IMG/VR virus record: IMGVR_UViG_3300017963_000063
Coordinates: 1 to 54,338 of that record
Length of the DNA stretch: 54,338 nt
Direction: 5' to 3' (one strand)
DNA from: a virus
Taxonomy: Duplodnaviria; Caudoviricetes
The translations under genes and the position numbers were made by a program. A model generated the notes under the pieces. It saw only the letters and a list, made by a program, of their open reading frames with translations, was not told the DNA's origin and ran no database searches. Shown one piece after another: positions 31,634 to 54,338 of the stretch. Numbering within the stretch: position 1 is the first letter of the stretch; each line of letters begins with the position of its first letter.

Positions 31634-31893
31634 TGGGGGCACAGTATCCACCCAACGTGAACTGCCCGCGGTGCAACGCCGCGCTGGATGCATACTGGCC
31701 ATACGCTAACGCCGCAGATCGGTTCGCACTGCTGATCGGTGCAACTGGTTTCCCCTTAGTCGATTGCGAAACGGTGCGCCGGCAACTGAAAGAGGCTGCG
31801 GATGAAACGGATTGGACTGTACGCCAAGCGTGTGCGCGCTTCGACGATCTTGTTGAACAGGACTTGCGGGCCGTGATAGCCAAGGCCCCATAA
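31633..31893 (+). CDS. hypothetical protein
   Basis: CPRC; its TAA stop is part of site A. Confidence 0.55.
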   Translation: MGAQYPPNVNCPRCNAALDAYWPYANAADRFALLIGATGFPLVDCETVRRQLKEAADETDWTVRQACARFDDLVEQDLRAVIAKAP

Positions 31894-31924
31894 GCGGACT
31901 TATGTGTCCTAAATTATTCGGACG
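31884..31924 (+). other. dif-like recombination site A (three-arm)
   Basis: GGCCCCATAA-gcggac-TTATGTGT-cctaaa-TTATTCGGACG. Confidence 0.65.
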
Positions 31925-31927
31925 CAG

Positions 31928-32980
31928 ATGAATGAGTTGGCACTATTTACAGGCGTTGGTGGTGGACTTCTCGGAACCCGACTTCTCGGCTGGCGATGCG
32001 TCTGCGCCGTGGAAATCGAACCGTACTGCCGGGAAGTCCTCCTGCGGCGCCAGCGGGACGGTATGCTTGACCTGTTTCCGATCTGGGACGACATCCGAAC
32101 CTTCGACGGCAGACCCTGGCGTGGCCTCGTGGATATCGTCACTGGCGGCTTCCCGTGCCAGCCGTTCAGCGTTGCAGGCCAGCGACGTGGCGAAGATGAC
32201 GAACGCAATATGTGGCCCGAAACCATCCGAGTCATTCGCGAAGTGGGACCGCGATTCGCGCTGCTGGAGAACGTACCAGGGCTGCTTGTTCACCCGTACT
32301 TTGGAACCATACTCGGAGACCTGGCCGAGAGCGGGTATCGCGTTCGATGGGATTGTATCCCTGCGTCAGCCGTTGGCGCCCCGCACATCAGGGACCGTCT
32401 GTTCATACTCGCCCGATGGAGCGGAGGTGCCGCCAGCGCCGAGTTCGGAAGTGTACTGGCCAACCCCCGACGCGACGGGCAGCAACACGCTGGAGAACCG
32501 GCACTGCCACGACAGGATACGCCCGACGCTGGGGAAGGCTGCGAGGATGTGGCCAACGCCGCGAGCTCGGGATGCAGGAGGAGCGCTTGCCGGCAGCAAG
32601 GCCACGATAAACGAGGTGGGCCGAATGGTCCGTCCAAGCGGGCAGGACTTCAGCGTGCCGTTGTGCGAAGCGGTGAAGATGTGGCCGACCCCAACGAGCG
32701 GGGACGGGCTGGCAACGGCTGTCTCGCGCCTCCTCCCGACGATGACGGCGCGAGACAGCCGAACGATCAAGGGCAACGTGCCACCGCCGAACCATCAGGG
32801 CGGGGTATCGTTGACGCAGACAATCGCCTCTCCGCAGCAGAGTGGTGGCCTGAACCCGCCGTGGGTCGAGTGGCTGATGGGGTTCCCCATCGGGTGGACC
32901 GACTTAAGGGACTTGGCAATGCCCAGGTTCCAGCAGTGGTTAGAGCAGTTTGGGAACTGATGGGCAACGTCCGACAATAG
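31928..32980 (+). CDS. dcm: DNA cytosine-5 methyltransferase, alpha-type chain
   Basis: LFTGVGG motif I, GFPCQ motif IV, ENV motif VI, HIRDR motif VIII, LGNA motif X. Confidence 0.9.
   Translation: MNELALFTGVGGGLLGTRLLGWRCVCAVEIEPYCREVLLRRQRDGMLDLFPIWDDIRTFDGRPWRGLVDIVTGGFPCQPFSVAGQRRGEDDERNMWPETIRVIREVGPRFALLENVPGLLVHPYFGTILGDLAESGYRVRWDCIPASAVGAPHIRDRLFILARWSGGAASAEFGSVLANPRRDGQQHAGEPALPRQDTPDAGEGCEDVANAASSGCRRSACRQQGHDKRGGPNGPSKRAGLQRAVVRSGEDVADPNERGRAGNGCLAPPPDDDGARQPNDQGQRATAEPSGRGIVDADNRLSAAEWWPEPAVGRVADGVPHRVDRLKGLGNAQVPAVVRAVWELMGNVRQ
31932..32960 (+). CDS. overlapping +1-frame partner of the C5-MTase (WPTP repeats, motif IX-like)
   Basis: 342-aa open frame; WPTP x3; LNPPWVEWLMGFPIGWT. 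Confidence 0.65.
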   Translation: MSWHYLQALVVDFSEPDFSAGDASAPWKSNRTAGKSSCGASGTVCLTCFRSGTTSEPSTADPGVASWISSLAASRASRSALQASDVAKMTNAICGPKPSESFAKWDRDSRCWRTYQGCLFTRTLEPYSETWPRAGIAFDGIVSLRQPLAPRTSGTVCSYSPDGAEVPPAPSSEVYWPTPDATGSNTLENRHCHDRIRPTLGKAARMWPTPRARDAGGALAGSKATINEVGRMVRPSGQDFSVPLCEAVKMWPTPTSGDGLATAVSRLLPTMTARDSRTIKGNVPPPNHQGGVSLTQTIASPQQSGGLNPPWVEWLMGFPIGWTDLRDLAMPRFQQWLEQFGN

Positions 32981-32992
32981 AGGCTAAGTTGC
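32968..32992 (+). other. dif-like site B
   Basis: CGTCCGACAA-tagagg-CTAAGTTGC at the MTase stop. Confidence 0.6.
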
Positions 32993-33022: not shown

Positions 33023-33721
33023 ATGGACGCGACGATTGAGGAGCATCTGGCGCGGCGGGCCGGATTCGTGCTGCGTGAACTAGGCCCGGTGTTTGACGGG
33101 CTGCCCAACGACCGCGAGTTCTTCATTGCTGGCGGTGCCATCGCTGGGCACATCAGCGACATTGACATATTCCCGGTTGGCGACGACGACCTCAGCCAGT
33201 GGATGACCCTAGATGCCGCCAAGTACCCCATCATCAGCAGGACGAAGAACGCAACGACGTACCGCTGCGAGCCTTGGCCCGTTCAGCTTTGCCACTACGC
33301 GCATCCAACATTGCGGGGCTTGGTGGACTCGTTCGACTATGCCCACATTCAGGCAGGTGCCCGGTGCAACATCGCCTGCGCGCTTGAGGTGTACTGGACC
33401 GAAGCATTCGTAGACTCGCGGGCGCTCAGCCTGTCGTGGTTCACGGGGTCAGAGTATCCGCTGTCATCGCTGATCCGGGCCGGCAAGTATTACAAGCGGG
33501 GCGAGATGCCCCGCGGGTCATATCTTCGGGCGGTCTTGGACTGTGCCGGGGCTGTGGCCAAGCGCGGATTCAAAGACTACGCCGACTTCAAGGACCAGCT
33601 TGACGCTGTAGACCTGGGGCTTGTGCCCGAGGAGTTGGGCGACGTAGAGCGTGCTGGCCTGATTGAACTATTTGAATCGCTGCGGCGCGATGACGGTGCT
33701 GGCTGCCCGTTAAGCCCGTAG
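33023..33721 (+). CDS. nucleotidyltransferase (CCA-adding/poly(A) polymerase head-like)
   Basis: FIAGGAI...SDIDIF, QL...SFD pattern; GGAG RBS. Confidence 0.7.
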   Translation: MDATIEEHLARRAGFVLRELGPVFDGLPNDREFFIAGGAIAGHISDIDIFPVGDDDLSQWMTLDAAKYPIISRTKNATTYRCEPWPVQLCHYAHPTLRGLVDSFDYAHIQAGARCNIACALEVYWTEAFVDSRALSLSWFTGSEYPLSSLIRAGKYYKRGEMPRGSYLRAVLDCAGAVAKRGFKDYADFKDQLDAVDLGLVPEELGDVERAGLIELFESLRRDDGAGCPLSP

Positions 33722-33759
33722 TCCCATAACAGAGGTTATGTGTCTTAGCTTATAGGACG
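33720..33759 (+). other. dif-like site C (three-arm)
   Basis: AGTCCCATAA-cagagg-TTATGTGT-cttagc-TTATAGGACG. Confidence 0.65.
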
Positions 33760-33782
33760 AAGAAGATGGACCGAGAACCCTG

Positions 33783-33980
33783 ATGCATATGCTGGCGGAC
33801 TTCATTGCCAACCTAGACCCGAGGTCTGTAGGAGGGCGCGGCCGCGCTTCGCGGGCGGCAATGCGTGCGTATGCCGAAGAAATCGAAGCGACTTCGCCCG
33901 GGTTTGCCGCGGACCTGTTGGACTATGTGCGGAGAATCGACGAGGCGCAAGCCCTTAGAACGCTGGGAGTTACGGAATGA
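33783..33980 (+). CDS. hypothetical protein
   Basis: Lies between sites C and D; coupled to the next gene. Confidence 0.5.
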   Translation: MHMLADFIANLDPRSVGGRGRASRAAMRAYAEEIEATSPGFAADLLDYVRRIDEAQALRTLGVTE

Positions 33981-34195
33981 CAAACAAAACGCTCTTGCAC
34001 GAACCGGCGATGGCCAAGGTGCGAAGTAGCAAAATGCCAACGCTGGCAGCCTCCTACGAGAAGTTAGCCAAGGCTGCTGATGAGTCTAACGCGGCCAGGG
34101 CATCCCTCACGCTGGACTGGATAACTGACGGCGAGGACGTACAGGCTGAATTTGTGCCACAACTGACGATTGCCGTCGTTCGGCCACCGGACTAG
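33977..34195 (+). CDS. hypothetical protein
   Basis: GGAG RBS, ATGA overlap. Confidence 0.55.
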   Translation: MTNKTLLHEPAMAKVRSSKMPTLAASYEKLAKAADESNAARASLTLDWITDGEDVQAEFVPQLTIAVVRPPD

Positions 34196-34200
34196 GCGAA

Positions 34201-34225
34201 CGTCCGATAGACTTGGTTAAGTTGC
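34201..34225 (+). other. dif-like site D
   Basis: CGTCCGATAG-acttgg-TTAAGTTGC. Confidence 0.6.
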
Positions 34226-34607: not shown

Positions 34608-34610
34608 CCG

Positions 34611-35034: not shown

Positions 35035-35063
35035 TTGACAGGTTCCGAATAATGTGTTAGGCT
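35035..35063 (+). promoter_or_regulatory. sigma70-like promoter for the recombination operon
   Basis: TTGACA-17bp-TAGGCT. Confidence 0.7.
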
Positions 35064-35069
35064 GAACAG

Positions 35070-35196: not shown

Positions 35197-35207
35197 GGAG
35201 CGTGACA

Positions 35208-37227: not shown

Positions 37228-37634
37228 GTGCGCGGCGCGTATACAACTTGGTTGACTTCTTTGAGTTGCTGGGCGTCACGTTTGCCACGGATTGGGATGG
37301 TGAGGTAGAGGCGACGTATCCCGAGTCGGTGCCCATAGAACTGCTGCGTTCTCTTGTGGAGGACTACACTGACGAGATACGACGAAGGATGGAATTTCGT
37401 CGCCGGCGTGCCATGCAGGTGTGCGTAGGCGGTGGGACGCTGAATGGCCAAAGGCACAGCAAGTTCTGGCCGCAGCTAATTTGCAAGCATCTAGGCAGGG
37501 CGCGGTGGGAAGTGTACGCCATAGCGCGTGATGGCCGGGCTTTCTATTGCGGCGAAGCAAGCAGCCAGCAGAAAGCGCGTCGGCTCGCCGCTGCACGCAG
37601 GGCACACGAGGCAGCGGGGCAAACGAAGCCATGA
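37224..37634 (+). CDS. hypothetical protein
   Basis: Coupled at both ends. Confidence 0.55.
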   Translation: MSARRVYNLVDFFELLGVTFATDWDGEVEATYPESVPIELLRSLVEDYTDEIRRRMEFRRRRAMQVCVGGGTLNGQRHSKFWPQLICKHLGRARWEVYAIARDGRAFYCGEASSQQKARRLAAARRAHEAAGQTKP

Positions 37635-39290: not shown

Positions 39291-39595
39291 AAGTGACCGA
39301 CGAGCCAACGCTGTTCGACGTGCCCCGGAGCCGTTCGACGGACCCGGAGACGAGCCGGGAGGCCGAGGACCGCCACGCCGGCAAAGCCTGGACGCACACC
39401 AAGTGGGTAGCCCAGCAGGTGCAACTCTACCCGGGGTCAACGGCGGTCGAGCTGTGGAAGGCGTGCGGCGGCCTTGACCGCCACGAGTGGTCCCGCCGGC
39501 TGCCCGACGCCGAGCGGATCGGGCTGATACGCAGAGGCGAGCCCCGCAAGTGCCGAGTCCGAGGCGTCAAGATGGTGACCTGGTGGCCGAAATGA
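39287..39595 (+). CDS. winged-HTH phage protein
   Basis: RSTDPETS...G.TAVEL...SRRLPD...G...R.C. Confidence 0.65.
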   Translation: MKVTDEPTLFDVPRSRSTDPETSREAEDRHAGKAWTHTKWVAQQVQLYPGSTAVELWKACGGLDRHEWSRRLPDAERIGLIRRGEPRKCRVRGVKMVTWWPK

Positions 39596-39783
39596 GGATC
39601 TACTTAGGTTGCCGGAATGAATCCAGCCCGTTGACTGAGGCGTACTACGGACGCTACACGCTCGCACGCGAACTGATTGATGCTTTGCCTAAGAAGTTGT
39701 CTACGTGGTCTTTACCGCGAGACTGGGTGCAGAATCGCACATGGGCGGCATGGGAGGAGTGGCAGGCACGGACAGCGGAGTAA
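39592..39783 (+). CDS. hypothetical protein
   Basis: ATGA overlap; fills the gap. Confidence 0.45.
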   Translation: MRIYLGCRNESSPLTEAYYGRYTLARELIDALPKKLSTWSLPRDWVQNRTWAAWEEWQARTAE

Positions 39784-39787
39784 ACTG

Positions 39788-40660
39788 GTGGCAGATGAGT
39801 GGATTAAGGTCCGTGAGAATCTACCGGAGGACCCGGCCGTGGACGGAATAGCCACGCAACTCCAGATCAGCCAAGACGAGGCTATCGGCCTGCTGGTCCG
39901 ATTCTGGATTTGGGCTCCGAAATATACCACCACCGGCCGCATCGGTTGTGTGTCCGCAAAATGTCCGCAAAATGTCCGCACGGTGTCCGCAGATTGTCTG
40001 ATGGTGGACCGCATCGTAGGTGTTCCGGGCTTCGCCGAGGCCATGCTTCAGGTCGGTTGGCTGGAGAAGGACGGTGGGTTCCTGACCATACCACGGTTCG
40101 ACCGGCATATGTCCAAGTCCGCTAAGCGTAGGGCTTTAGACGCGGAACGCAAGCGAAACATCAGGGCTGGAGCCGACGAAAAAACATCCTCGAAACGTCC
40201 GCTTTCCAAGCGGACGAAACGCGGACCAGAGAAGAGAAGAGAAGAGAAGAAACAAACAACCCCCTGTAGTCCCCCGAAACCAAAGCCCGACGACTGGGCG
40301 CAGGTCCAGCCACTGGTGGCCGGGACCGACCTCGATTGCGAACGCTTCCGGGTCGTATGGGAGGGCTGGGCGAAGGACCGCCGGGACCGGGGCAGCAAGC
40401 TAACCAGCCAAGCCGTCAAGCGGCAGATCGGTCGACTACTGGGCTGGGGCCTGGACGGGGCCGTTGCCAGCATCGAGCAGAGCATTGAGGCCGGCTGGAA
40501 GGGGTTGTTCGAGCCCAAGGGGGACGCCAAGCCGCTGAAGAAGGACCGATTTCACGAGGGCTTCACGCGGCGGGCAGAGGAGCAAGCAGCAGAACGACAG
40601 GCAGACTACAAGGCGGCACTGGCAGAGGACGAACGCCGCAAGGCCGCCCGGCCGGGCTAG
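39788..40660 (+). CDS. phage replication initiator
   Basis: WIKVR..L..DP.V, PGFAEAM..VGWL, C-terminal SIEAGWKGLF; internal iterons. Confidence 0.75.
   Translation: MADEWIKVRENLPEDPAVDGIATQLQISQDEAIGLLVRFWIWAPKYTTTGRIGCVSAKCPQNVRTVSADCLMVDRIVGVPGFAEAMLQVGWLEKDGGFLTIPRFDRHMSKSAKRRALDAERKRNIRAGADEKTSSKRPLSKRTKRGPEKRREEKKQTTPCSPPKPKPDDWAQVQPLVAGTDLDCERFRVVWEGWAKDRRDRGSKLTSQAVKRQIGRLLGWGLDGAVASIEQSIEAGWKGLFEPKGDAKPLKKDRFHEGFTRRAEEQAAERQADYKAALAEDERRKAARPG
39951..39991 (+). repeat. iteron-like repeats, putative origin
   Basis: TGTCCGCA x4 at an 11-bp period inside the initiator gene. Confidence 0.65.
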
Positions 40661-40669
40661 GAGATGGCG

Positions 40670-40726
40670 ATGAGCGAGATGACCTCCCGCCCGATCATAT
40701 TCAGCGGCCCGATGGTGCGAGCGTGA
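40670..40726 (+). pseudogene. N-terminal stub of the common phage RPILFSGPMVRAIL family
   Basis: MSEMTSRPIIFSGPMVRA then stop. Confidence 0.5.
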
Positions 40727-40938
40727 TAGCGAGTCCGCGACAAGGCGACGTAGTGCAACTGTGGTATGGCCCGCGTTGGCGACGGTTCTGCCCGTGGCAC
40801 GGACACTTCGCCGTTGTCACCGTTAGCGGTCGGGGGCGGCCGCGCAATCACGGGGTGCGGGTTGGCGGGATCGGGTTGATTGTGCCTTGCGGCAACTTGC
40901 GGCGGGTGCCGCCCTTGCTGCCCGACAGGAGCGAGTGA
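40723..40938 (+). CDS. hypothetical protein
   Basis: Coupled ORF. Confidence 0.5.
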   Translation: MIASPRQGDVVQLWYGPRWRRFCPWHGHFAVVTVSGRGRPRNHGVRVGGIGLIVPCGNLRRVPPLLPDRSE

Positions 40939-41210
40939 TGAAGGGCGTAGAACCTGCCAACACGAAGATTCGCCTGCCCGACGATCGCGTCGGCACGATC
41001 TGCTGGAACCACTTGGACGGCTGTGGTGGCGTGTGGGGCATACACGACTTCAGCAAGATCGAGGAAGCGTTCAGCGACAAGTACCCAGCGCCGGAGTTTA
41101 TGCTACGCGAGAAGGATGCGGAAACGGTGCTGCGGCGAACGCATGGCCCGCAATTGGAATGCGTCGGCGACGAGTACGAAGTGCTGGATGCCGGGCGGAG
41201 GAGCGAGTGA
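40938..41210 (+). CDS. hypothetical protein
   Basis: AGGAG RBS. Confidence 0.6.
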   Translation: MKGVEPANTKIRLPDDRVGTICWNHLDGCGGVWGIHDFSKIEEAFSDKYPAPEFMLREKDAETVLRRTHGPQLECVGDEYEVLDAGRRSE

Positions 41211-41213
41211 GCC

Positions 41214-41489
41214 ATGAAGCACTACACGATTCGCATCCCGTGGCCCTATGACGCCGCCGAAGAGGAGGCAAGACAGTTGCTTGCCGCGGGGGCGGGGCTG
41301 ATCGAAAGCCACGCGGTGCTGGACGCGCTTCTAGAACAGATGCCGGACGGCGTCGGAGCAGAGTTCATACAAAAGACTGCACCCTGCAAGATTCGCACGC
41401 TTAGAGCAGCGGAGGTCCGCGATCTACGGTTTCGAATGGGCTACGGTTTCTGGTATATGCCGGGCGGAGGAGCGAGTGATGGCGACTAA
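41214..41489 (+). CDS. hypothetical protein flanked by 23-bp direct repeats
   Basis: GGAGGAG RBS. Confidence 0.55.
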   Translation: MKHYTIRIPWPYDAAEEEARQLLAAGAGLIESHAVLDALLEQMPDGVGAEFIQKTAPCKIRTLRAAEVRDLRFRMGYGFWYMPGGGASDGD

Positions 41490-41844
41490 GAAACGCTTTG
41501 GTGGCGAGCGAGAGCAGAACTACAACTGGCGTGGTGGGCGCGTCGTGGCATCCAATGGCTACGTGCTGCTTCGTGTAGGACAAGGCCACCATCTTGCCGA
41601 TGTGCGTGGCTATGCCTATGAGCATCGGATCATTGCCGAGCAGATGCTGGGGAGGCGGCTGCATGCACAGGAGCAGGTGCACCATCGCAAGACCGGGGCA
41701 CAGTTACGTCTGCCAGGAGAGCCGAATCCCCTTGTGTCATGCGCTTGCGGCTGTGGCCAAACCTTTGCGCGGTATGATGCCAATGGCAGGCCCCGGCGAT
41801 TTGTCTCGGGCCACAACATGCACGGAGGGGGCGATGGGAACTAA
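41479..41844 (+). CDS. HNH endonuclease, probably internally deleted
   Basis: NWRGG..GY..EHR..E.VHH lacks the following N..DN..NL; CACGCG domain. Confidence 0.65.
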   Translation: MATKKRFGGEREQNYNWRGGRVVASNGYVLLRVGQGHHLADVRGYAYEHRIIAEQMLGRRLHAQEQVHHRKTGAQLRLPGEPNPLVSCACGCGQTFARYDANGRPRRFVSGHNMHGGGDGN

Positions 41845-42673
41845 AATAGAATGGTGCTCCGAAGTGTGGAATGTTGTCACGGGATGCACCCCGATATCCG
41901 AAGGCTGCGAACACTGTTGGGCTGAGCGCATGGCGAAGCGGCTGCGCGGTCGGCACGGGTATCCGGCGGACGAGCCGTTTCGGGTGACGCTGCATTCGGA
42001 TCGTCTTGACCAACCTTTGTGTTGGCGGAAGCTGCGGCGCGTCTTCGTCTGCTCAATGGGCGACTTGTTCCACGCAGATGTGCCGCTAGAGTTTATCGAC
42101 GACGTGTTTCGCATGATGATGCTTGCCCCGAAGCACCAGTACCTTATTCTGACAAAACGCCCGACACGCATGTATCAGTTCGTCGTAGATTGTGAGACCG
42201 AGGCGCTCGAACGCGCATGGCTTGGCACCACCGTCGAAAGCGCCAAGCACCTTGACCGCATTGACGTGCTCCGCGACTGCCCCGCCGCCATCCGCTGGCT
42301 GAGTTGCGAGCCGCTGCTGGGGCCGCTGGATAACTTGAACCTTCAGGGTATCCATTGGGTCGTTGTCGGCGGCGAGAGCGGGCCAGGTGCGCGGCCGATG
42401 CACCCGGACTGGGCGCGCGGGGTTCGGGACCAGTGCGTGGCGGCGGGCGTGCCGTTCTTTTTCAAGCAGTGGGGACAATGGCAGCCCTGGGCAGACACAT
42501 ACACGCGCCAGGCGGGTTGGCGGTATGTATCTTATCGCGATGGCCTGGCAAGAGTCGGACCACCAGAAGACAGGGATGCCGCCATGCAAACAGTCGGCAA
42601 GAAGGCCGCCGGTCGGATACTTGATGGTCGGACCTGGGATCAGTACCCCGCCGCCGGCGGCGAGGGGGCGTGA
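41834..42673 (+). CDS. DUF5131 (phage Gp37/Gp68) family protein
   Basis: TKIEW, GCTPISEGCEHCWA, SMGDLFH, LTKR, GGESG, FFFKQWG. Confidence 0.9.
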   Translation: MGTKIEWCSEVWNVVTGCTPISEGCEHCWAERMAKRLRGRHGYPADEPFRVTLHSDRLDQPLCWRKLRRVFVCSMGDLFHADVPLEFIDDVFRMMMLAPKHQYLILTKRPTRMYQFVVDCETEALERAWLGTTVESAKHLDRIDVLRDCPAAIRWLSCEPLLGPLDNLNLQGIHWVVVGGESGPGARPMHPDWARGVRDQCVAAGVPFFFKQWGQWQPWADTYTRQAGWRYVSYRDGLARVGPPEDRDAAMQTVGKKAAGRILDGRTWDQYPAAGGEGA

Positions 42674-42707
42674 TGAGCAAGCGGAAACAAAAGGACTGGA
42701 CGGATAA

Positions 42708-43166
42708 ATGGGAACAGGGCCAATCAGTGTGGTGCTGGGACCGCTGGGGTCGCTATTGGTTCACCAAGGAGACACCGTGGACATTGGCGAAGCTATGCGA
42801 CTGTGGGAACAAGGCGAAGCGCAGCGCCCTCACCGGCGTCGTTACGTCTATCTCGTAATTGCTGCCGGGATTGTTTGGGCTCTCGCGCAAGCTATGTTTA
42901 TTTGTTGGGGTAGTCTTAGTGCAGCGGCGATATCGTTGTCGGCGTGCGCATTGATGGCACTGGCCAGCGGGCTTGACTGGCGAGCGTCGCGTTACACCCG
43001 CCGCTTTTGGAAGTGGTACGAGATAGAGCTCCAGATACGCGGGGGGTACAGCCGCAAGGCGTTCGCTGGCTATGATCTGTATGGTTTTCCGATAGGGGTG
43101 TTAGCTGGCTGGGAGTGCGAGGACGCTCACCTGCCTGGTGAATGCCCGCTGTGCGGGGCAGATTAG
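42708..43166 (+). CDS. hypothetical membrane protein (start uncertain)
   Basis: Two hydrophobic stretches; stop lies at site F. Confidence 0.35.
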   Translation: MGTGPISVVLGPLGSLLVHQGDTVDIGEAMRLWEQGEAQRPHRRRYVYLVIAAGIVWALAQAMFICWGSLSAAAISLSACALMALASGLDWRASRYTRRFWKWYEIELQIRGGYSRKAFAGYDLYGFPIGVLAGWECEDAHLPGECPLCGAD

Positions 43167-43189
43167 TCCGGTAAGGCGCGTTACGTTGC
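43165..43189 (+). other. dif-like site F
   Basis: AGTCCGGTAA-ggcgcg-TTACGTTGC between a stop codon and the HNH start. Confidence 0.6.
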
Positions 43190-43689
43190 ACGACCGCACA
43201 CGTCGCTATCTTACGGCTAGGGACTTCCCTGTGCGCCGCGATCCGGTGGATGGCATGACGCTATGCCGAATCTGCGGTGGGCGATGCAAGTACAAGCAGG
43301 CGCGGATATGCTCGGACAAGTGTCGGGAAACGTCGGATGTGCTGATGTCCGTATCATCGCAGCGGTGGCATGTCGAGCAACGAGATAAAGGCGTGTGCGC
43401 CAAATGCGGCTGGGACCTCGGGAAACTTGAGCGGGCGATTCGCTTACGCTGGTGGCTACGTCGATATCTACTCAAACGGTTCGGGCTGTATGGACACACA
43501 GCACTGTGGGAGATGGATCACATTGTGCCAGTGTCAGAGGGCGGCGGCGTTGCGCCGGATATGAGTTACGAGGAAGTTATGGCCAATCTGCGGACGCTGT
43601 GCGTACCGTGCCACAAGGCGGAAACCGCCGCACTCGCAGCAAGGCGAGGCAGGCCCGCCGCCCTCGACGCGCAGGAGCAGCAGCGATGA
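43186..43689 (+). CDS. HNH endonuclease
   Basis: RDKGVCAKC, DHIVPVSEGGG, NLRTLCVPCH. Confidence 0.85.
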   Translation: MHDRTRRYLTARDFPVRRDPVDGMTLCRICGGRCKYKQARICSDKCRETSDVLMSVSSQRWHVEQRDKGVCAKCGWDLGKLERAIRLRWWLRRYLLKRFGLYGHTALWEMDHIVPVSEGGGVAPDMSYEEVMANLRTLCVPCHKAETAALAARRGRPAALDAQEQQR

Positions 43690-43823
43690 AGCGCTATTGG
43701 CGTTGCGCAGCCACAACACAGTCGGGGAAAAGATGCCGCCGAAAACGACAGCGGAATGCCATGTTCTACTGCGCGCAGCACTGGAAAGCGTGGCAGCGAA
43801 AGAGAAAGGAGTTGCTTGGATGA
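43686..43823 (+). CDS. small C3H Zn-finger protein
   Basis: CAATTQSGKRC...C..H. Confidence 0.55.
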   Translation: MKRYWRCAATTQSGKRCRRKRQRNAMFYCAQHWKAWQRKRKELLG

Positions 43824-44041
43824 AGCCAGGCGATGCAGTGTGGGTAGCAACTCAAAGCGGCGAGTGGGCTGAGGGGTTCTTGTTGGAGTTGGTGCAGCGA
43901 GAAGCACGCCGGGCGTGGTGGTTGGCGTATCGAACACCCCACATTAGCCGCAAGGGGGACTGGGTTGTTGGTATATCCCTAGAGGCCGGCATCCGCTCCC
44001 GCGACCGGTCGCAGCGCGGCGCGGACCGGCCGGAGGAGTAG
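43820..44041 (+). CDS. MKPGD...GADRP family protein
   Basis: AAGGAG RBS; paralogue at 45997. Confidence 0.6.
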   Translation: MKPGDAVWVATQSGEWAEGFLLELVQREARRAWWLAYRTPHISRKGDWVVGISLEAGIRSRDRSQRGADRPEE

Positions 44042-44045
44042 CGAG

Positions 44046-44258
44046 ATGGCAAAGAAGAAGGCGCCTAAACCAGGACCCCAGAAGCGCGAGCGCTATATAA
44101 GCGTCCGCAGCCAGGGCCGCACCTTGTTTCTGTGGGACGGTACGCCGCTGGTGTTGTGCACAAAGCGCGAGATGCGCGCCGACCTGCGGGCCATCGGCTT
44201 GATGCACGACGAACGCATCTTCAAGCTCGTCCCCGTCAGCGAGAAGGAGTTGGGGTGA
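44046..44258 (+). CDS. hypothetical basic protein
   Basis: GGAGGAG RBS. Confidence 0.55.
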   Translation: MAKKKAPKPGPQKRERYISVRSQGRTLFLWDGTPLVLCTKREMRADLRAIGLMHDERIFKLVPVSEKELG

Positions 44259-44698
44259 TGGGCATGCCAACGGAGCCGATAGCGTTTTTCGTGCCGGGCG
44301 TCCCGCAGCCGAAGGGGTCGGCCAAGTGGGTGCGCAGCAAGTCCACAGGGCGGCCCATCGCCAAGACGAACGAGGCACTACAAAGCTGGGCTGGTGCGAT
44401 AGCTGGGGCCGCGCAGTCTGCAATGGCTCGCCGAGATGAAGGGCCAGCGCTGCTAACGATTCCGCTACATGCAGAGTTGACCTTCAACTTCAACCGCCCC
44501 AAGAGCGTGTCTGCCAAGAAGCGCCCACGGCACTCGGTCACGCCGGACATCGACAAGCTAGTGCGCGCCGCGCTGGACGGAATGACGGGCGTGGTGTACC
44601 GGGACGACGCACAGATTGACTGCGTTAAGGCGCGGAAGGTTTACACGGAAGAACAAGCAGGGCTGGCCGTGGTGCTGGCCGAGCGGCTGGAACAATGA
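44258..44698 (+). CDS. rusA: RusA Holliday junction resolvase
   Basis: PQPKG...PDIDKL..ALDG...DDAQI. Confidence 0.9.
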   Translation: MGMPTEPIAFFVPGVPQPKGSAKWVRSKSTGRPIAKTNEALQSWAGAIAGAAQSAMARRDEGPALLTIPLHAELTFNFNRPKSVSAKKRPRHSVTPDIDKLVRAALDGMTGVVYRDDAQIDCVKARKVYTEEQAGLAVVLAERLEQ

Positions 44699-45525
44699 GG
44701 ATTCTTCGCGTGTTTCCACGGCGAACCAACGCAACGCCTCGCGACGACTTGGTGCGGATAGGCGAGCCGGGGCTATTTGATCCGCCTGACTGCGATGAGG
44801 TGCATGTTAGCGTGGCCTTCACTTGGGACCGGGATCGCGGCCAGCATCTAGCCGACTCCTGGGCCAAGCATCATCCGCGCGTTCGGATCGGCGGGCCAGC
44901 GATGGGATCGCCAGCGGAGGAGTTCGTGCCGGGGCGCTACCTAGGCGAAGGCCATGTCATCACTTCGCGCGGCTGCCCGAATCGCTGCTGGTTCTGCTGG
45001 GTGCCAGAACGCGAGGGCGGTGTCCGAGAGTTGCCGATCTGCGACGGCTGGAAGATCCACGATTCCAATCTGCTGGCGTGCAGTGAACAGCATATCCGCG
45101 CCGTGTTTGAAATGCTAGACCGCCAGGCGCATCGACCAGAGTTTCTCGGCGGGCTGGAGGCGGCGCTGCTGGAAGCATGGCATGTTGATCTGCTGGCGAA
45201 CGCTCGCCCGCGCCGCATTTTCTTCGCATACGACACGCCTAATGATCTTGGCCCGCTTCAGCAGGCAGGGGCCATGCTGACTGAGCGGGCTATGCGAGAA
45301 TGCTATTGTTTCGTTCTGGTCGGCTATAGTGGTGACGATTTTGACAAGGCAGAGAAAAGGTGCCGCGAGGCCCACAATGCGGGCTTCATGCCGGTAGCAA
45401 TGTTGTATCGTGACGAGCAGGGCCAGGTAGATCGCGCATGGCGGCGATGGCAGAGAGTATGGTGCAGGCCGGCTCTGACGCGGGCGGTGCTGGCCGAGCG
45501 GCTGGAGGCGGGCGATGGCATATAG
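44695..45525 (+). CDS. radical SAM protein
   Basis: SRGCPNRCWFC (CxxxCxxC). Confidence 0.8.
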   Translation: MRILRVFPRRTNATPRDDLVRIGEPGLFDPPDCDEVHVSVAFTWDRDRGQHLADSWAKHHPRVRIGGPAMGSPAEEFVPGRYLGEGHVITSRGCPNRCWFCWVPEREGGVRELPICDGWKIHDSNLLACSEQHIRAVFEMLDRQAHRPEFLGGLEAALLEAWHVDLLANARPRRIFFAYDTPNDLGPLQQAGAMLTERAMRECYCFVLVGYSGDDFDKAEKRCREAHNAGFMPVAMLYRDEQGQVDRAWRRWQRVWCRPALTRAVLAERLEAGDGI

Positions 45526-45784
45526 CCCCGATGAACAACGAGTGCTGGAGCTACAGTACCGAACCATCGAACGCGACAATGCCCTGCGCAATTGTGCAGT
45601 GTTGCGGGCAGAGCATAAGAAACTGCAATCCGGCCTCGCCGCCGCCCGCGCGCTGCGCGACGAGCTGGCGGAAGCGCTGCATGAGTCGCTAGAGTTTGAA
45701 CCGTTCTTGACAGAACGAGTTGCAGGTATTGAAGCCCTCCTCGCGCGGCACGCCGAGGCGAAGGAAAAGGAGAAGGCGGGATGA
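45515..45784 (+). CDS. coiled-coil hypothetical protein
   Basis: GGAGG RBS. Confidence 0.55.
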   Translation: MAYSPDEQRVLELQYRTIERDNALRNCAVLRAEHKKLQSGLAAARALRDELAEALHESLEFEPFLTERVAGIEALLARHAEAKEKEKAG

Positions 45785-45996
45785 CGCGATATGTCTGCGA
45801 AGAATGTGGAGAGGTAGACGGCGAGTGCAAATGTCGTCCTAGGCCGCCGCTCCGGCTAAGTGGCGGACCATCGCTGTGCGAGCGCGTCACAGAAGGAGTC
45901 CCGCCCATGAAACCCGGCGACGTAGACATCCGCCGCCGCGACCCCGCCGCGCACGGCGCGGACAAGCCGACTGATAAAGGAAAAGGAGTCCCGCCC

Positions 45997-46230
45997 ATGA
46001 GACCCGGCGATGCGGTGTGGGTGCTGCTCAAGCCCCGCCTTCCCCCTCTACAGGCGTGGGCAGACGGCTTTGCGCTAGGGGCAGTCTTGGGCGACTCGTA
46101 TGGCGACTGGTGGTGTGCATACAGCGATGGCGCGGGCCAGTGGTTTATTGCGCGGTTCGCGCCAGCGGGCATCCACCCCCGCGCCCCCGCAGCGCACGGC
46201 GCCGACCGGCCCGACGCGGAGGTGGGGTGA
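45997..46230 (+). CDS. MRPGD...GADRP family protein (within ORF 45781-46230)
   Basis: Own AAGGAG RBS; paralogue of 43820. Confidence 0.55.
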   Translation: MRPGDAVWVLLKPRLPPLQAWADGFALGAVLGDSYGDWWCAYSDGAGQWFIARFAPAGIHPRAPAAHGADRPDAEVG

Positions 46231-46430
46231 TGGAACATCTGCCGGACCAACTTGAAGCGATGGAAGCAGCAGCCGAGGCGCGACTGGAGACGCGCGGTGA
46301 CGAGTACAAGTGTGAAGGGTGCGGCCAATGGCGACACTTTGACGACGCCCATCCGACGAGCGCGAACCCTTACTGTGTCCACATCTGCACCGAGTGTGCC
46401 GTGCGTGAGGGCGTATTACCCAAGGACTGA
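46230..46430 (+). CDS. Zn-finger protein
   Basis: CEGC...CTEC; stop lies in site E. Confidence 0.55.
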   Translation: MEHLPDQLEAMEAAAEARLETRGDEYKCEGCGQWRHFDDAHPTSANPYCVHICTECAVREGVLPKD

Positions 46431-46463
46431 TAATGGTGGTTACGACGCGGAGGTTATAGGGCG
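46424..46463 (+). other. dif-like site E (three-arm)
   Basis: GGACTGATAA-tggtgg-TTACGACG-cggagg-TTATAGGGCG then ATG. Confidence 0.6.
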
Positions 46464-46754
46464 ATGAAGATTGTCAAAACGGAACGTGGCTTCCAGCAGG
46501 TGCTGTGTCCTGTGTATCCACCCGATGGAACAAGCAAGCCTATCGTCTTGCAATCGTCTGTCATTCTCGACTACGCGGAGGCGATGGACCGCCCTGGATC
46601 GTCAGCCCTGTGGGTTGGCGAGCACCATCATCTCTGCCGCGAAGAAGTGGCGGAACTGATAAGTCGCCTTCAGCACTGGCTGGAGCACGGCCGACTAGAC
46701 TTAGTAGTCCCCGCCCCGCCCCCCGGCCCGGCGAGCGACGAGGTGAACGGATGA
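46464..46754 (+). CDS. conserved-looking phage hypothetical protein
   Basis: TERGF...QSS...ALWVG...HL.RE.V..L...LQ.W...G pattern. Confidence 0.65.
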   Translation: MKIVKTERGFQQVLCPVYPPDGTSKPIVLQSSVILDYAEAMDRPGSSALWVGEHHHLCREEVAELISRLQHWLEHGRLDLVVPAPPPGPASDEVNG

Positions 46755-46948
46755 TAACGGCCAACACAATACCCGACGACGCAACGTGTAGCGGTTGCGG
46801 TGGAACTGCCGAGGTCCGACTCTTCTTTGCAGTGCTGGATGACGACTTGGACTTGTGCCGTCCATGTTGCGGCGAGCTGGCAGGCGTTGCCCAGCAGGCG
46901 AGCGACGAGGTGACGAATGAACGGACGAGACCCACAGGAACGGCATGA
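46751..46948 (+). CDS. small Zn-finger protein
   Basis: CSGC...LCRPC; GAGGTG RBS. Confidence 0.5.
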   Translation: MITANTIPDDATCSGCGGTAEVRLFFAVLDDDLDLCRPCCGELAGVAQQASDEVTNERTRPTGTA

Positions 46949-47402
46949 CATGGCGGCAGAACGCTATGCCGACCTTGAAGCCGCCAACGCCGCGCTCCGA
47001 GCTAAGGTGGACCGGCTGACCGCCGAGGCGGCGGCGACAGTGGAGGTGCTGGAGAGGTTATTGTGCGGACTGCCCGCTGAATCCATTGTTGACGAGCATG
47101 CGCGTGAGCGCGTGGATGAAGCGGAGCGTCTGCTAGAATGCGGCGCCCCCTCCCGCGCCGCCGCCCTGCTGGACGCGCTGGAGAAGGGGCGTGCGAGAAA
47201 GAAGGCTGCCGCAGAACTGAAGGCGCATAAAGCGGAAATGCGTCTCGTCAGGGGCGCGTGTGGCGTGTGCGCAAGGCTAGAGCGTCAACACCAGAAGACG
47301 ATAGACGACGAGGACGCCGCCCTCGACAAGTACGACGGACATCAAGGCGTAGCGGCCCACGGTCCAGGCCAAAGCGCCGTGGATTCGGAGTCGGACCGTT
47401 AG
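46917..47402 (+). CDS. coiled-coil hypothetical protein
   Basis: GAGGTG RBS. Confidence 0.55.
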   Translation: MNGRDPQERHDMAAERYADLEAANAALRAKVDRLTAEAAATVEVLERLLCGLPAESIVDEHARERVDEAERLLECGAPSRAAALLDALEKGRARKKAAAELKAHKAEMRLVRGACGVCARLERQHQKTIDDEDAALDKYDGHQGVAAHGPGQSAVDSESDR

Positions 47403-47513
47403 GAAGATGCCAAGGGATGTTGGCCGCGGCGTCCCTGGGTCGGTGTGCCACTCACCCTGTCCGTGGTCGGCTCAGGGACGCCCGGGTATAACTGAAACCG
47501 AAAGGAGACGAGC

Positions 47514-47711
47514 ATGGCGGAAGTCACTATCAAACAGTGCGACGTGTACGGGAGCCCAAAGGCCGACAGCTACCGAGTGACCGTCACCACACGCCAAGGA
47601 GACGGCGAGCCGGACACAGACATCATCAAAAAGGAGGTCGATCTCAGCCCGCGGGCTCTGGCGCGGCTGGAGAAGTTCATCGAGAAAGGCGTAACACCGC
47701 CGCGGTCTTAG
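47514..47711 (+). CDS. small protein resembling the Lsr2 oligomerisation domain
   Basis: AAAGGAG RBS; MA.VT...D..G..A......EVDLS..A.ARL. Confidence 0.5.
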   Translation: MAEVTIKQCDVYGSPKADSYRVTVTTRQGDGEPDTDIIKKEVDLSPRALARLEKFIEKGVTPPRS

Positions 47712-47804
47712 GAGGGCGAGCAGCGACACAACTGCTTGCCGCGTAAGAGGTTACAGAAATCGTAGCCCGGCGGACTCGATATGGTGTATACTGTCCTCGA
47801 ACAA

Positions 47805-47876
47805 AGCGGGGTGGAGCAGCGGCAGCTCGCCGGCCCCATAAGCCGGAGATCGCGGGTTCAAATCCCGCCCCCGCCA
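47805..47876 (+). tRNA. tRNA-Met(CAT), initiator-like, no encoded CCA
   Basis: Full cloverleaf: GAGC/GCTC D-stem, CCGGC-CCCATAA-GCCGG, GCGGG-TTCAAAT-CCCGC. Confidence 0.9.
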
Positions 47877-47905
47877 GTCGGTCAATTGGTCACGGAGGCT
47901 CCAGC

Positions 47906-48112
47906 GTGAGCCGCTTTGAGTATCACATCTGCGTGGCGGTGGTATGGCTGGGCGTTTTCGCCGCTGTGTGGACTTTGGCGGGCTGCCACGTACACCTGCA
48001 CTACCACCCGCCTGCACGGCAAGCCTCCCAGTCCAGCGACAAGCCGCACGACCCCGACACCATGCTGGACTGGGCGATAGGAGATTTGATGGATGAACCT
48101 GATCCGAACTAA
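47906..48112 (+). CDS. small membrane/lipoprotein
   Basis: Hydrophobic N-terminus with LAGC lipobox. Confidence 0.55.
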   Translation: MSRFEYHICVAVVWLGVFAAVWTLAGCHVHLHYHPPARQASQSSDKPHDPDTMLDWAIGDLMDEPDPN

Positions 48113-48263
48113 GACGTTCTGGGTTGGTCTAGTCATCATCGCTACCGGCGTCATTGAAGGCGTATTCGACGGCGACTGGAGCGCGGCGATGGAGAAGATT
48201 CTGGCCGGGCTGTTGGTTATCACCGGCCGGGATGCAATCTCGAAGATAGGAGCAAACGGATGA
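48093..48263 (+). CDS. holin-like protein, 56 aa (not in ORF track)
   Basis: MNLIRTKTFWVGLVIIATG...ILAGLLVITGRDAISK; two TM segments; AGGAG RBS. Confidence 0.6.
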   Translation: MNLIRTKTFWVGLVIIATGVIEGVFDGDWSAAMEKILAGLLVITGRDAISKIGANG

Positions 48264-48346
48264 GTGCATGGTTAATCGGACTGTTTTCTGTGCTACTGGC
48301 AGCCTTCGGCGGCTTTCTAACCGACAACCCGTTTCCGTGGGGGTAG
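48260..48346 (+). CDS. 28-aa membrane peptide
   Basis: AGGAG RBS; MSAWLIGLFSVLLAAFGGFLTDNPFPWG. Confidence 0.5.
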   Translation: MSAWLIGLFSVLLAAFGGFLTDNPFPWG

Positions 48347-48347
48347 G

Positions 48348-48446
48348 ATGTTCGACTTCATCCCAGGTTCGGGCGAACTGATCGGGCCGTGGGTGGGAGC
48401 ACTGCTCGCGGCCGTGGCCGTCATCTTCGGGCGGCTGTTTCGGTAA
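48348..48446 (+). CDS. 32-aa membrane peptide
   Basis: MFDFIPGSGELIGPWVGALLAAVAVIFGRLFR; tiles the gap exactly. Confidence 0.5.
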   Translation: MFDFIPGSGELIGPWVGALLAAVAVIFGRLFR

Positions 48447-48458
48447 AGGAGTGTTCTG

Positions 48459-48893
48459 ATGCGCAAGCGGATTGCATCAGTGGCGTGCCTGTTGGCGATC
48501 CCGAGCTGCCTCGCGTCGGGGTGTGGAGTGCTCCATGCCAGGACCTCAATGGGGGCCGGTGTCTTCGGCTGGCATTTCACCGACACGAAGGACAACGACA
48601 TCTCGTTCGACGAGGCCAGCTACGACCCAGCGACCAAGCAGTTCTCGATCAAGGGTCTGGTCATCCGCAACAACGCCAGCGACCCGATGATAGCCAACGT
48701 CCAGCAAATAATGGCCATCGTCGAACAGCAGAAAGCCGCGAACGAGGGCCTCAAAGTCTTCATGGATGGCATTCAGCCCGCGCTGTCGCTGCTGGGAGGC
48801 TTGCAGGGCATCGCCGCGAGCGAACCGTCCTGCCCTATTGGCGAGGCGTTGGCCCGGCTGACGCAGCCCACTACCGATAGCGGGGGTGGCTAA
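48459..48893 (+). CDS. lipoprotein, possible spanin
   Basis: Signal peptide with LASGC lipobox; AAGGAG RBS. Confidence 0.6.
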   Translation: MRKRIASVACLLAIPSCLASGCGVLHARTSMGAGVFGWHFTDTKDNDISFDEASYDPATKQFSIKGLVIRNNASDPMIANVQQIMAIVEQQKAANEGLKVFMDGIQPALSLLGGLQGIAASEPSCPIGEALARLTQPTTDSGGG

Positions 48894-51661: not shown

Positions 51662-51955
51662 GTGAAAACGGTGGAGCTGAACTTGCAGCCTCACGAATAC
51701 GAGGCTGATGACGTGCGGCAAGTGCGCCGCTCGCTGAACGTCAGCCAAGCCGTATTCGCGCAGATCCTGGCCGCGTCGATTGAGACGGTCGAGAGCTGGG
51801 AGCAGGGGCAGCGAAAGCCGAGCCCTATGGCCTGTCGTCTACTGGACCTCATCCAGCGGCATCGGGGGCACTGGGTCAAGGTGCTCTACGATTCTGCGGA
51901 GAAGAAGCAAGAGGAAGAAGCAGCCAACCAGGGGAGGGAGCTAGCGTCCGCGTAG
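51662..51955 (+). CDS. XRE/HigA-like HTH protein, possibly N-truncated
   Basis: VRRSLNVSQAVFAQIL..S.ETV.SWEQGQRKP. Confidence 0.8.
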   Translation: MKTVELNLQPHEYEADDVRQVRRSLNVSQAVFAQILAASIETVESWEQGQRKPSPMACRLLDLIQRHRGHWVKVLYDSAEKKQEEEAANQGRELASA

Positions 51956-52012: not shown

Positions 52013-52630
52013 CTAAAACGCAAACAAGTCCCCAATCTCACCATCATCCCTCAAAACGTGAATGTAAAGCGAGGTTGTACTCAGGTTGGCGTGACCAGCA
52101 GCGTCCCGGACCTCGGCCAGCGTCCGCCCGCCGGCCAGCGCGTGGCTGCAAAACGAGTGCCGGCCCGTGTGGCACGTCACCTCAGATTGGCGGTCAGCCC
52201 CTAGGCACTTGCAGGCCGTGATGAATTTCATCCGGGCCTCATTCCGGTGTAGGCGACCGGCCGTAGCGCCGACCAACGTACAGACAAAGGGATCGTTCCC
52301 ATCCGCCCCCATCCCCGCCCGGTACTCCAGCCACTGACGCAGACATTCCAGCGTCCCGCGGTCCCACCAGAGCGGCACACGGCGGCTCCTCCCGTTCTTG
52401 CCCCGGCGGACCTCCAGGTACGGCCGCTCAAGCCCGAGGTGCGCATCCCGCAGGTCCAGCCCGCAGATTTCGCTCGCCCGGAGGCCGCAGCAGCACGATA
52501 GCCGGAACACCACCTCGCGGACCCAAGCATGGTGCGAGGCGCGACTCTTGACCGAGCAGTCGGCCAGGATGGCTGCGATCTCCTGAGCCTGGAGTATCTG
52601 CGTGGGGCTTATCGGTCGGTTGGGAGACAT
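52013..52630 (-). CDS. minimal tyrosine recombinase (catalytic domain only, 205 aa)
   Basis: GLRASE, GK, HTGRH, GH, Y catalytic residues; no N-terminal core-binding domain. Confidence 0.9.
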   Translation of the reverse strand: MSPNRPISPTQILQAQEIAAILADCSVKSRASHHAWVREVVFRLSCCCGLRASEICGLDLRDAHLGLERPYLEVRRGKNGRSRRVPLWWDRGTLECLRQWLEYRAGMGADGNDPFVCTLVGATAGRLHRNEARMKFITACKCLGADRQSEVTCHTGRHSFCSHALAGGRTLAEVRDAAGHANLSTTSLYIHVLRDDGEIGDLFAF

Positions 52631-52996
52631 CTACACCTCCCGGCGCCCGGCCTTGGCGATGGCGGCGCGAAGTACGCTGTCCACCTCGTTGAAGTCAGCA
52701 CCGTGTTCGGTGCGCTTCCACTTGTCTGTGAGGTCTTGCGCTACCCTGCACGCCGCCAGGAGGTCGTCGTGCGAGTTGACGGCGCGGACGATAAATTCGG
52801 CGTTGGCTGTATTCTCGGCGATGGTGGCCTTGCTTTCTGGTCGATGCGGCCGGGTGTAGTAGCCGCCAGTCATCTTGGCGATAGAACGACTTGCTGCGTC
52901 AACGCCAATATACATCTCCCCGTACAGAATCTCACGGGCGCCAATCTTCCACGGCACTGGCGTATGCCCCGCCTCGCCTTGCGTCGGCTCGCTCAT
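52631..52996 (-). CDS. phage hypothetical protein (HTPxPW...ANA.FIVRAVN family)
   Basis: Recognisable phage motif. Confidence 0.65.
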   Translation of the reverse strand: MSEPTQGEAGHTPVPWKIGAREILYGEMYIGVDAASRSIAKMTGGYYTRPHRPESKATIAENTANAEFIVRAVNSHDDLLAACRVAQDLTDKWKRTEHGADFNEVDSVLRAAIAKAGRREV

Positions 52997-54325: not shown

Positions 54326-54338
54326 ACACCCCCTTCTC
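54216..54338 (+). repeat. 123-bp direct terminal repeat, right copy
   Basis: Identical to 1-123. Confidence 0.95.

Follow-up and report, generated by a model that had tools for sequence, protein, structure and literature searches.

The control of methylases and other accessory genes in uncultivated phages can be approached from few directions, one of which is the short motifs repeated between early genes, and the mechanisms of such intergenic repeats are mostly unsolved. The best-known case is that of the start-associated ESAS/SAS repeats of Cluster K mycobacteriophages, which the available part of their description presents as an imperfect inverted-repeat pair and a short spacer followed by an asymmetric motif 3–7 bp before a start codon, with copies lying in one orientation, only in the non-structural half of the genome, and sometimes with the upstream stop codon inside the motif (PMC3203893). 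The same portion of that report favours DNA-binding proteins, the departures from the repeat giving no support for RNA pairing (PMC3203893), and a 2025 account, in its available sections, has the function still untested (PMC12699233). Here, we describe an element of comparable design in the virus record IMGVR_UViG_3300017963_000063, a tailed double-stranded DNA (dsDNA) phage of 54,338 bases rated 100% complete; the window referred to below is this whole record. The element occurs at three sites, A, C, and E. Its anatomy is unusually clean and locked in its spacing, and it adds an independent case in a phage very different from the mycobacteriophages. It is best filed with the known start-associated or operator-like intergenic repeats of phage early regions.

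Each site lies on the + strand and is built of three 11-nt arms: a left arm ending in ATAA, a 6-nt spacer, a middle arm starting with TTAYG, 3 nt, and a third (right) arm starting with TTAT. The left and middle arms form an imperfect 11-6-11 palindrome with the invariant inner core (C/G)ATAA-N6-TTA(T/C)G, and the third arm, TTAT-W-S-G with a GGACG-like tail, is a direct repeat 14 nt after the middle arm. Site A (31883..31924) comprises the left arm at 31883–31893 (AGGCCCCATAA), the spacer at 31894–31899, the middle arm at 31900–31910, and the third arm at 31914–31924; its left-arm TAA is the stop of an 87-aa upstream open reading frame (ORF), and the ATG of a C5 methylase stands at 31928. Site C (33719..33760) has its left arm at 33719–33729, beginning on the TAG stop of a 242-aa ORF, its spacer at 33730–33735, its middle arm at 33736–33746, and its third arm at 33750–33760; the ATG at 33766 opens merely a 5-codon ORF, and the ATG of a 65-aa gene follows at 33783. 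In site E (46423..46464) the left arm (46423–46433) spans a TGA stop (46428–46430) and an in-frame TAA, the spacer covers 46434–46439, the middle arm (46440–46450) is the TTACG variant, and the third arm (46454–46464) ends on the A of the ATG of a 96-aa ORF. An earlier note on this DNA had remarked that an ATG comes soon after each site, and this holds: the start codon is 3 nt after the third arm in A, 5 nt after it in C, and overlaps it by one base in E. Neighbouring genes of the phage mostly abut or overlap by 1–4 nt, and A, C, and E each occupy a gap of 33–61 nt.

The arms are related in several ways. Compared with the reverse complement of the middle arm, the left arm matches at 9/11 positions in A, 8/11 in C, and 5/11 in E; compared with the reverse complement of the right arm, the values are 7/11, 9/11, and 6/11. 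As direct repeats, the middle and right arms agree at 6/11 positions in every site. The outer arms of C had been described as a near-perfect inverted repeat, a description that stands at 8/9 as originally written and 9/11 over the 11-nt arms. The 6-nt spacers (GCGGAC, CAGAGG, and TGGTGG) share 1, 1, and 3 of 6 bases in pairwise comparison.

The pattern ATAA-N6-TTAYG-N9-TTAT has exactly three matches in the whole window (31890–31917, 33726–33753, and 46430–46457), all on the + strand; 100 dinucleotide-preserving shuffles gave no match, and neither did the pattern read backwards in the window. With up to two mismatches allowed, the sole extra match was the minus-strand reading of A (31876–31903, one mismatch), which appears because A is nearly symmetric. 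Since this pattern had been fitted to all three sites, an independent test used a consensus drawn from A and C alone (28 agreeing positions out of 50), with which both strands were scanned. E scored 21/28, the best other place on either strand, followed by the minus-strand self-readings of A, C, and E (19, 17, and 17), and the best unrelated place reached 17. E is therefore a true third member, the exact shared spacing reported in the earlier note is borne out, and the repeat formed by A, C, and E is real and well defined.

The three conserved blocks of A are identical to those of C (20/20 positions), and the spacers of the two sites agree at 3/11. The chance of all eight mismatches landing in the spacers would be 2e-5 if they fell at random, a value that is in truth less extreme because the block limits were drawn from the same alignment. 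Blocks that are kept while spacers diverge argue for selection on a spacing-constrained site, and conservation of blocks at fixed spacing is expected of base-specific protein contacts and not of a decaying duplication. Similarity among the sites begins about 20 nt before ATAA, in the last codons of the upstream ORFs, and extends to the next start codon; between A and E it reaches back to ~31872. The upstream ORFs of A and E, tested as paralogues, are not paralogous, and the flanking genes are likewise not paralogues.

We tentatively read A, C, and E as copies of one cis-acting, start-associated element of ~45–50 bp that would act on dsDNA in the manner of an operator, an interpretation that is plausible while falling somewhat short of an even chance. 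Block conservation, dyad symmetry, a variable spacer, and the lack of a fold signal point to a putative protein-binding site on duplex DNA. A sequence-specific protein of phage or host origin would bind the palindrome as a dimer, and a further protomer could sit on the third arm, where the ribosome-binding region and the start codon of the next gene lie. Given that location, binding would set the expression of the accessory genes that follow, namely the C5 methylase, the two small ORFs, and the 96-aa ORF. A possible route is the blocking or pausing of transcription reading through from upstream; alternatively, translation initiation could be occluded. That the binder would be a regulator is favoured by the placement of the sites: they follow the direction of transcription, lie between early genes in the non-structural half of the genome (31.9, 33.7, and 46.4 kb of 54 kb), and each touches both the upstream stop and the downstream start, extending into the ribosome-binding/start region of an accessory gene.

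Within the available portion of the ESAS/SAS description, the correspondence is close. Both elements combine an inverted-repeat pair with an asymmetric motif before the start codon, the third arm here ending 3, 5, and −1 nt before the ATG; both keep one orientation (here the + strand) and the non-structural half, and both can include the upstream stop. RNA pairing finds no support in either, and for both a DNA-binding protein or a role in translation has been proposed. In contrast, the sites bear no sequence likeness to the SAS consensus GGGATAGGAGCCC, and we regard the element as an analogue, not a member. The ESAS repeats, as described there, are 17 bp long with a spacer of mostly 4–13 bp, compared with 11-nt arms and a fixed 6-nt spacer here; those genomes carry 11–19 copies and this one three, and the host group differs, the present phage coming from marine or sediment metagenomes. 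Stoperators, which are 13-bp asymmetric sites bound by a monomer and present in 20–30 copies, differ from the element in its symmetric core and its three copies. The likeness to them is looser than that to ESAS/SAS: in the available part of one report, the stoperators of Cluster A mycobacteriophages are repressor-type sites in short intergenic gaps, orientation-biased, often lying over stop or start codons, and acting on read-through transcription (PMC9283540), and the element here shares the short-gap placement, the orientation bias, and the overlap with stop and start codons.

A second motif, AACGTCCGA-N10-TAAGTTGC, occurs twice among the same genes on the + strand. Site B (32966..32992) overlaps the methylase stop and is followed by the ATG of the 242-aa gene at 32993, and site D (34199..34225) lies after the 72-aa ORF, which gives the order A, methylase, B, 242-aa gene, C, two small ORFs, D. 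CGTCCGA in B and CGTCC in D repeat, in inverted form, the TCGGACG and GGACG of the third arms of A and C, respectively; CGTCCGA has six occurrences on both strands of the genome, and A–D account for three of these. The AAC ... GTT ends of B and D invited comparison with integron sites, which was rejected, the two sites being too short and their fold not significant. Read in reverse as an ECF-type promoter, B and D miss the required spacing by one. A degenerate partner had been proposed near 46688; the string is present, but it scores 12/22 on the B/D consensus, which is equalled or beaten at 366 places, and it resembles the spacer of D. As a candidate member of the second motif (46687) it was rejected at this chance-level score.

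Relatives of these sites were sought in several collections. No relative came up in IMG/VR when the 96-aa ORF, the 242-aa ORF, the recombinase, or the large terminase served as the query, and the cultured phages of INPHARED matched the tRNA alone. A scan for CCCATAA-N6-TTATGTGTC returned four matches, all in contigs of 29–43% G+C and in unrelated context, and the pattern fitted to all three sites returned one, in a contig of 38% G+C; such matches of the strict three-arm pattern in A+T-rich contigs are due to chance. The second motif had one IMG/VR match, in the provirus G001 (30 kb, G+C 0.62). It also matched 15 metagenome loci, representing 10 distinct sequences, none related to the window, and the single match in G001 is therefore within chance. 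Among 80 prophage-like loci (1,324,545 bases) fetched via a Gp37/Gp68-like protein, no copy of either motif was present, and one CATAA-N6-TTATG was found, inside an ORF.

G001 is a distant provirus and has only the Gp37/Gp68-like protein (38% identity) and a methylase (~30%) in common with the window. Even so, similar sequences recur in the gaps of its early region. The exact copy of the second motif in G001 (23526–23552, minus strand) lies in a 29-nt gap after a methylase gene, in the opposite orientation to the genes, and a near-copy of the 35 nt surrounding it is located at ~24352–24386. A copy of the three-arm pattern with one mismatch stands in the gap directly after a methylase stop, the gap at 21510–21597 contains a long-spacer look-alike (GCAACGTCC-N36-CTAAGTTGG), and CATAA-N11-GGACGGTCTGATAAT is found in two gaps. 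A 35-nt element that includes GGACG and GATAA occurs twice, just ahead of starts, and the repeated motif belonging to G001 itself was found in G001 only. We compared 18 gaps of the window with 15 of G001, all against all (540 pairs). Five of the 12 best pairs involve sites A–E, the single top score (12) belonging to an unrelated pair, and C against the G001 copy, identical at 16/19 bases, is the sole site-related pair above the 99.9th percentile of the shuffle null. Conservation of the motif across phages is suggestive only.

Several observations weigh against the operator-like interpretation. Three copies are few beside the 11–19 SAS or 20–30 stoperators per genome in the known systems, and no site is located at the sigma-70-like early promoter seen by eye (~35038), where repressor operators would be expected. 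The half-site alone shows no enrichment in the genome (48 matches versus 49.9 expected; TTAT and ATAA occur 50 and 61 times, respectively, on the + strand). No regulator shared by the window and G001 was found at E 0.05, the best three-arm copy in G001 runs opposite to its genes and has a degenerate third arm (TTGT), and 7 of the 540 gap pairs score at least 10 where about 5 are expected. In addition, the ESAS/SAS analogy carries no proven mechanism, and the presence of a dif-like core and an Xer-like recombinase in the same genome has to be accepted as a coincidence.

That same pairing can be read differently. The sites could be core sites of a tyrosine recombinase, either host XerC/XerD or the 205-aa enzyme of the phage, and could mark exchangeable accessory-gene cassettes in a phage counterpart of the Acinetobacter plasmid pdif/dif-module system, with the third arm serving as an accessory or overlapping binding site. 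We consider this unlikely, while giving it real weight. The dif and pdif sites have, in the available part of their description, an 11-6-11 layout in which the inner parts of the arms are palindromic and conserved while the outer parts and the 6-nt centre vary (PMC6449649). The left and middle arms of the present sites show the same 28-bp arrangement of 11-nt arms, with palindromic inner parts, variable outer parts, and a 6-nt spacer of variable sequence in all three; the arm symmetry is clear in A (9/11) and C (8/11) and weak in E, whose middle arm is a poor mirror of the left arm (5/11). The inner ends of these sites, ATAA ... TTATG, also resemble those of E. coli dif. As with the dif and pdif sites in the accessible sections of two reports (PMC6449649, PMC13141974), several copies border accessory genes: A and C bracket a two-gene unit, the methylase and the 242-aa ORF. 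The third-arm sequences TCGGACG (A) and GGACG (C) recur inverted at B and D, and the look-alike sites of G001 also adjoin methylase genes.

Other features of the sites fit such recombination poorly. Recombining partners share an identical or nearly identical centre, whereas A, C, and E have dissimilar (1, 1, and 3 of 6), G+C-rich spacers. All three sites have the same arm order on the + strand, whereas dif modules, in the available part of their description, are bounded by inversely oriented sites (PMC6449649), and the third arm sets the element further apart from the dif and pdif sites described there. Metagenome contigs of runs X1 and X2 cross A, B–D, and E unchanged, with no joint at any site, which counts only weakly against exchange since contigs drop rare forms; the joints seen in 29500–48500 (runs X1–X4) lie inside the methylase and come from homologues of other organisms. 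The proposal in the earlier note of two overlapping sites with a shared central arm survives in part, as the dif-like 11-6-11 arms and the Xer-like recombinase agree with it; the differing spacers do not, and the absence of a contig joint speaks against it only weakly.

The recombinase itself lends mixed support. It is a single-domain tyrosine recombinase of 205 aa with an Xer-like catalytic domain (52013..52630, minus strand) and the sole candidate recombinase in the genome. The protein is a complete phage-integrase-family catalytic domain without an N-terminal core-binding domain. Its best family matches are XerC (E 4.5e-22), archaeal XerA, and XerD, in favour of a dif-like system, and its solved relatives are XerC-like, XerA, IntI4, and XerD. 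Against this, it scores far below all Xer cut-offs (78.8 versus 335 bits), because only the C-terminal half of the models is covered. It also aligns end to end, more weakly, with 200-aa FimB/FimE-type invertase models. In a protein atlas it groups with single-domain recombinases of ~200 aa, mostly from Planctomycetota and viruses, so the short form represents a family and not a truncation. The gene lies at least 5.5 kb from any site. An invertible segment beside it was considered and rejected, the longest inverted repeats there being 10–13 nt and none of them like A, C, or E. Compared with dif and pdif as partially described in the sources above, the replicon here is a tailed phage, its sole recombinase is this single-domain protein and not an XerC/XerD pair, and no rearrangement is seen in the contigs. 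On the minus strand (52013–52996) the recombinase directly follows a 121-aa ORF without a family, the TAG being succeeded by the ATG, with GGAGG 2 nt upstream.

A recombinase as the binder is favoured by the dif-like 11-6-11 form together with the Xer-like enzyme, and we keep it alive as a minority view. The fuller claim is that the three-arm sites and B/D are two kinds of boundary in a site-specific cassette system with dif-like cores, served by the single-domain Xer-like recombinase or by host Xer, a viral counterpart of dif modules or integron cassettes through which DNA methylases and other accessory genes would undergo capture, inversion, or exchange between phages; this we regard as decidedly doubtful. 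If the dif-like cassette reading is true, Xer-type shuffling of modules would take place in tailed phages as well as in plasmids and filamentous phages, and mosaic gene exchange at gene boundaries would gain a mechanism.

A role at the level of mRNA is likewise rather unlikely. Ribosomes leaving the upstream gene could restart on a mini-ORF within the site and then pass to the next gene, with the conserved TTATG as the start of the mini-ORF and, as its end, either TTA-TAG or a TGA that overlaps the next ATG. Such mini-ORFs do exist. The one in A has nine codons (31902..31931, + strand), starting on the middle-arm ATG and ending on a TGA that overlaps the methylase ATG (ATGA). C carries two of five codons each on the + strand (33738–33755 and 33766–33783), the second with a TGA overlapping the ATG at 33783 (TGATG). 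The eight-codon mini-ORF of E (46433..46459, + strand) has an ATG that overlaps the upstream tandem stop (TGATAATG, TAATG) and ends on the third-arm TAG, 4 nt ahead of the gene ATG. This codon geometry fits all three gaps, each crossable by stop-restart steps of at most 17 nt, and the 10- and 14-nt arm spacings place the ATG of E, the ATG of A and C, and the third-arm TTA in one frame. Moreover, A and C are without the strong AGGAG-type ribosome site found ahead of other genes of the phage, and a role in translation initiation was suggested for the SAS in the available part of that report (PMC3203893). However, the mini-ORF starts in the middle arm in A and C and in the left arm in E, the peptides are not conserved, and AT-rich gaps give ATG and stop codons by chance. 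A ribosomal relay would also leave unexplained the dyad symmetry and, in A and C, the conservation of a left arm that lies ahead of the mini-ORF; the G001 copy, if homologous, is antisense to its genes.

Motifs of 30–50 nt repeated ahead of phage early genes in the direction of transcription are mostly promoters, and the sites could represent a class outside a sigma-70 scan, used by a phage factor or an alternative sigma and giving leaderless or near-leaderless transcripts of moron-like genes. TAnnTT hexamers do occur at the same offset in A (TAAATT) and C (TAGCTT), but E reads GAGGTT there and no −35-like element stands 16–18 nt away. Nor does the third arm stand at a constant distance from the ATG (3, 5, and −1 nt), which leaves no fixed start point relative to that codon. 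A consensus scan of 30000–48500 found no sigma-70-type promoter at A, C, or E; it returned one promoter-like site (34611–34639), where shuffles average 4.0. The same interval contains 22 terminator-like sites, with no intrinsic terminator at A, C, or E among them. TTGACA-type promoters were seen by eye in larger gaps (~343 and ~35038), both below the scan threshold, and suggest that the host uses standard signals. We judge the promoter explanation improbable.

Less likely still, the sites might be passive remnants (moron linkers) that have no function today and were left behind when gene boundaries were duplicated or transferred together. They do sit at the borders of accessory genes, no relatives were found in which conservation over time could be shown, and a 12-base identity between A and the tRNA-Met gene illustrates that short chance identities occur. 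The exact spacing of all three copies, the contrast between blocks kept at 20/20 and spacers at 3/11, and flanking genes that are not paralogues all speak against such an origin.

A compact single-strand fold with paired outer arms, whether an RNA stem-loop or single-stranded DNA (ssDNA) as the earlier note had suggested by analogy with CTX attP and integron attC, can be set aside as very improbable. CTX attP(+) and attC, the substrates of Xer or IntI tyrosine recombinases, contain inverted repeats whose inner ends are AT-rich, and as one strand of an ssDNA intermediate they form long, stable, imperfect hairpins. In favour of a similar fold, the outer arms of C pair at 8/9 (9/11) positions, and the folds of A and C do contain a 6-bp hairpin of the inner CATAA(G/C)...(C/G)TTATG, whose loop end has one compensatory pair; E breaks two of the six pairs and has nothing comparable. 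Relative to shuffles, the z values were −0.61 (A), −0.93 (C), and +0.32 (E) for RNA, −1.20, −1.49, and +1.19 for the + strand of DNA, and −1.85, −1.23, and +0.71 for the minus strand; no fold thus beats its shuffles over the nine (−1.85 to +1.19), E folds less well than the average shuffle in each of its three, and the outer-arm stem is the minimum-energy structure in none. The covariation of the outer arms that had been put forward as a check yielded complementarity of 7/11, 9/11, and 6/11 with no compensatory pattern. An Rfam scan returned no family at the sites, its sole match at the gathering score being the tRNA-Met at 47805–47876. A tailed dsDNA phage with a terminase and a portal, unlike the CTX and integron systems, offers no obvious single-stranded stage, and the recombinase aligns with integron integrase models merely over residues 143–197, the C-terminal 50-odd residues.

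The genome around these sites has the temperate-type gene set of a tailed dsDNA phage. The first and last 123 bases of the record (1–123 and 54216–54338) are the same, so that its 'direct terminal repeat' is an overlap in the assembly of a circular or circularly permuted genome of ~54,215 bp. The G+C content is ~0.62 along the entire genome, and nearly all genes lie on the + strand, apart from a short minus-strand block at the right end that includes the tyrosine recombinase. The structural genes span 5–28 kb, with the large terminase and portal at 5–10 kb, and an SbcC-like protein, an Erf-type annealing protein, an exonuclease, a methyltransferase, and a replication initiator are encoded at 35–41 kb. 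Two small ORFs, one of 72 aa (34611–34829) and an XRE-like one of 97 aa (51662–51955), encode putative DNA-binding proteins. The phage is present in two metagenome runs, one of sediment and one of seawater, at ~11–14x contig depth. The ~200-aa relatives of the recombinase in the protein atlas offer a weak lead to a host among the Planctomycetota. Terminase matches at E 1e-20 were absent from the 401 sampled Planctomycetota genomes (0/401), a result uninformative about the host.

The gene after A (31928..32980, + strand) encodes a C-5 cytosine DNA methyltransferase (Pfam PF00145, E 2.5e-35, residues 4–162; NCBIfam dcm). Two + strand ORFs of ~1 kb each (31928–32980 and 31932–32960) overlap in different frames across this gene, and given that the Pfam match is limited to residues 4–162 of the first frame, a frameshift or a long variable region is possible. 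Methylase contigs of many other organisms accumulate at 32111–32146 and 32850–32906. The genes after C are two small ORFs of 65 aa and 72 aa (33783..34195, + strand) with no clear family, and the 96-aa ORF after E (46464..46754, + strand) has no family and no relatives found. Upstream of A, an 87-nt unit is present in at least three tandem copies (91–92% identical) at 31267–31599, inside the ORF 31133–31633, and metagenome contigs break within this repeat region (31326/31496).

Just upstream of E, recurring gene starts (AAGGAG-N8-ATGA.ACCCGGCGA; 43799–43845, 45893–45920, and 45976–46022) and gene ends (43985–44041, 45922–45978, and 46165–46221) point to a small family of ORFs that would be paralogous or internally duplicated. 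The tRNA-Met (47805–47876) is present in one copy; its anticodon loop reads CCCAUAA, with C at position 33 in place of the almost universal U. Its anticodon arm shares 12 identical bases with A (31884–31895; GGCCCCATAAGC), an identity that is probably due to chance. Finally, two stretches are likely the main regulatory regions of the phage. The first (124–2177) extends over 2 kb, has few plausible genes, and contains CACGCA-type words in repeated form together with a promoter-like TTGACT-N16-TATCGT near 343. The second, a 300-nt gap at 34830–35138, contains three GCAAC words 11–12 nt apart and a TTGACA-N17-TAGGCT near 35038.

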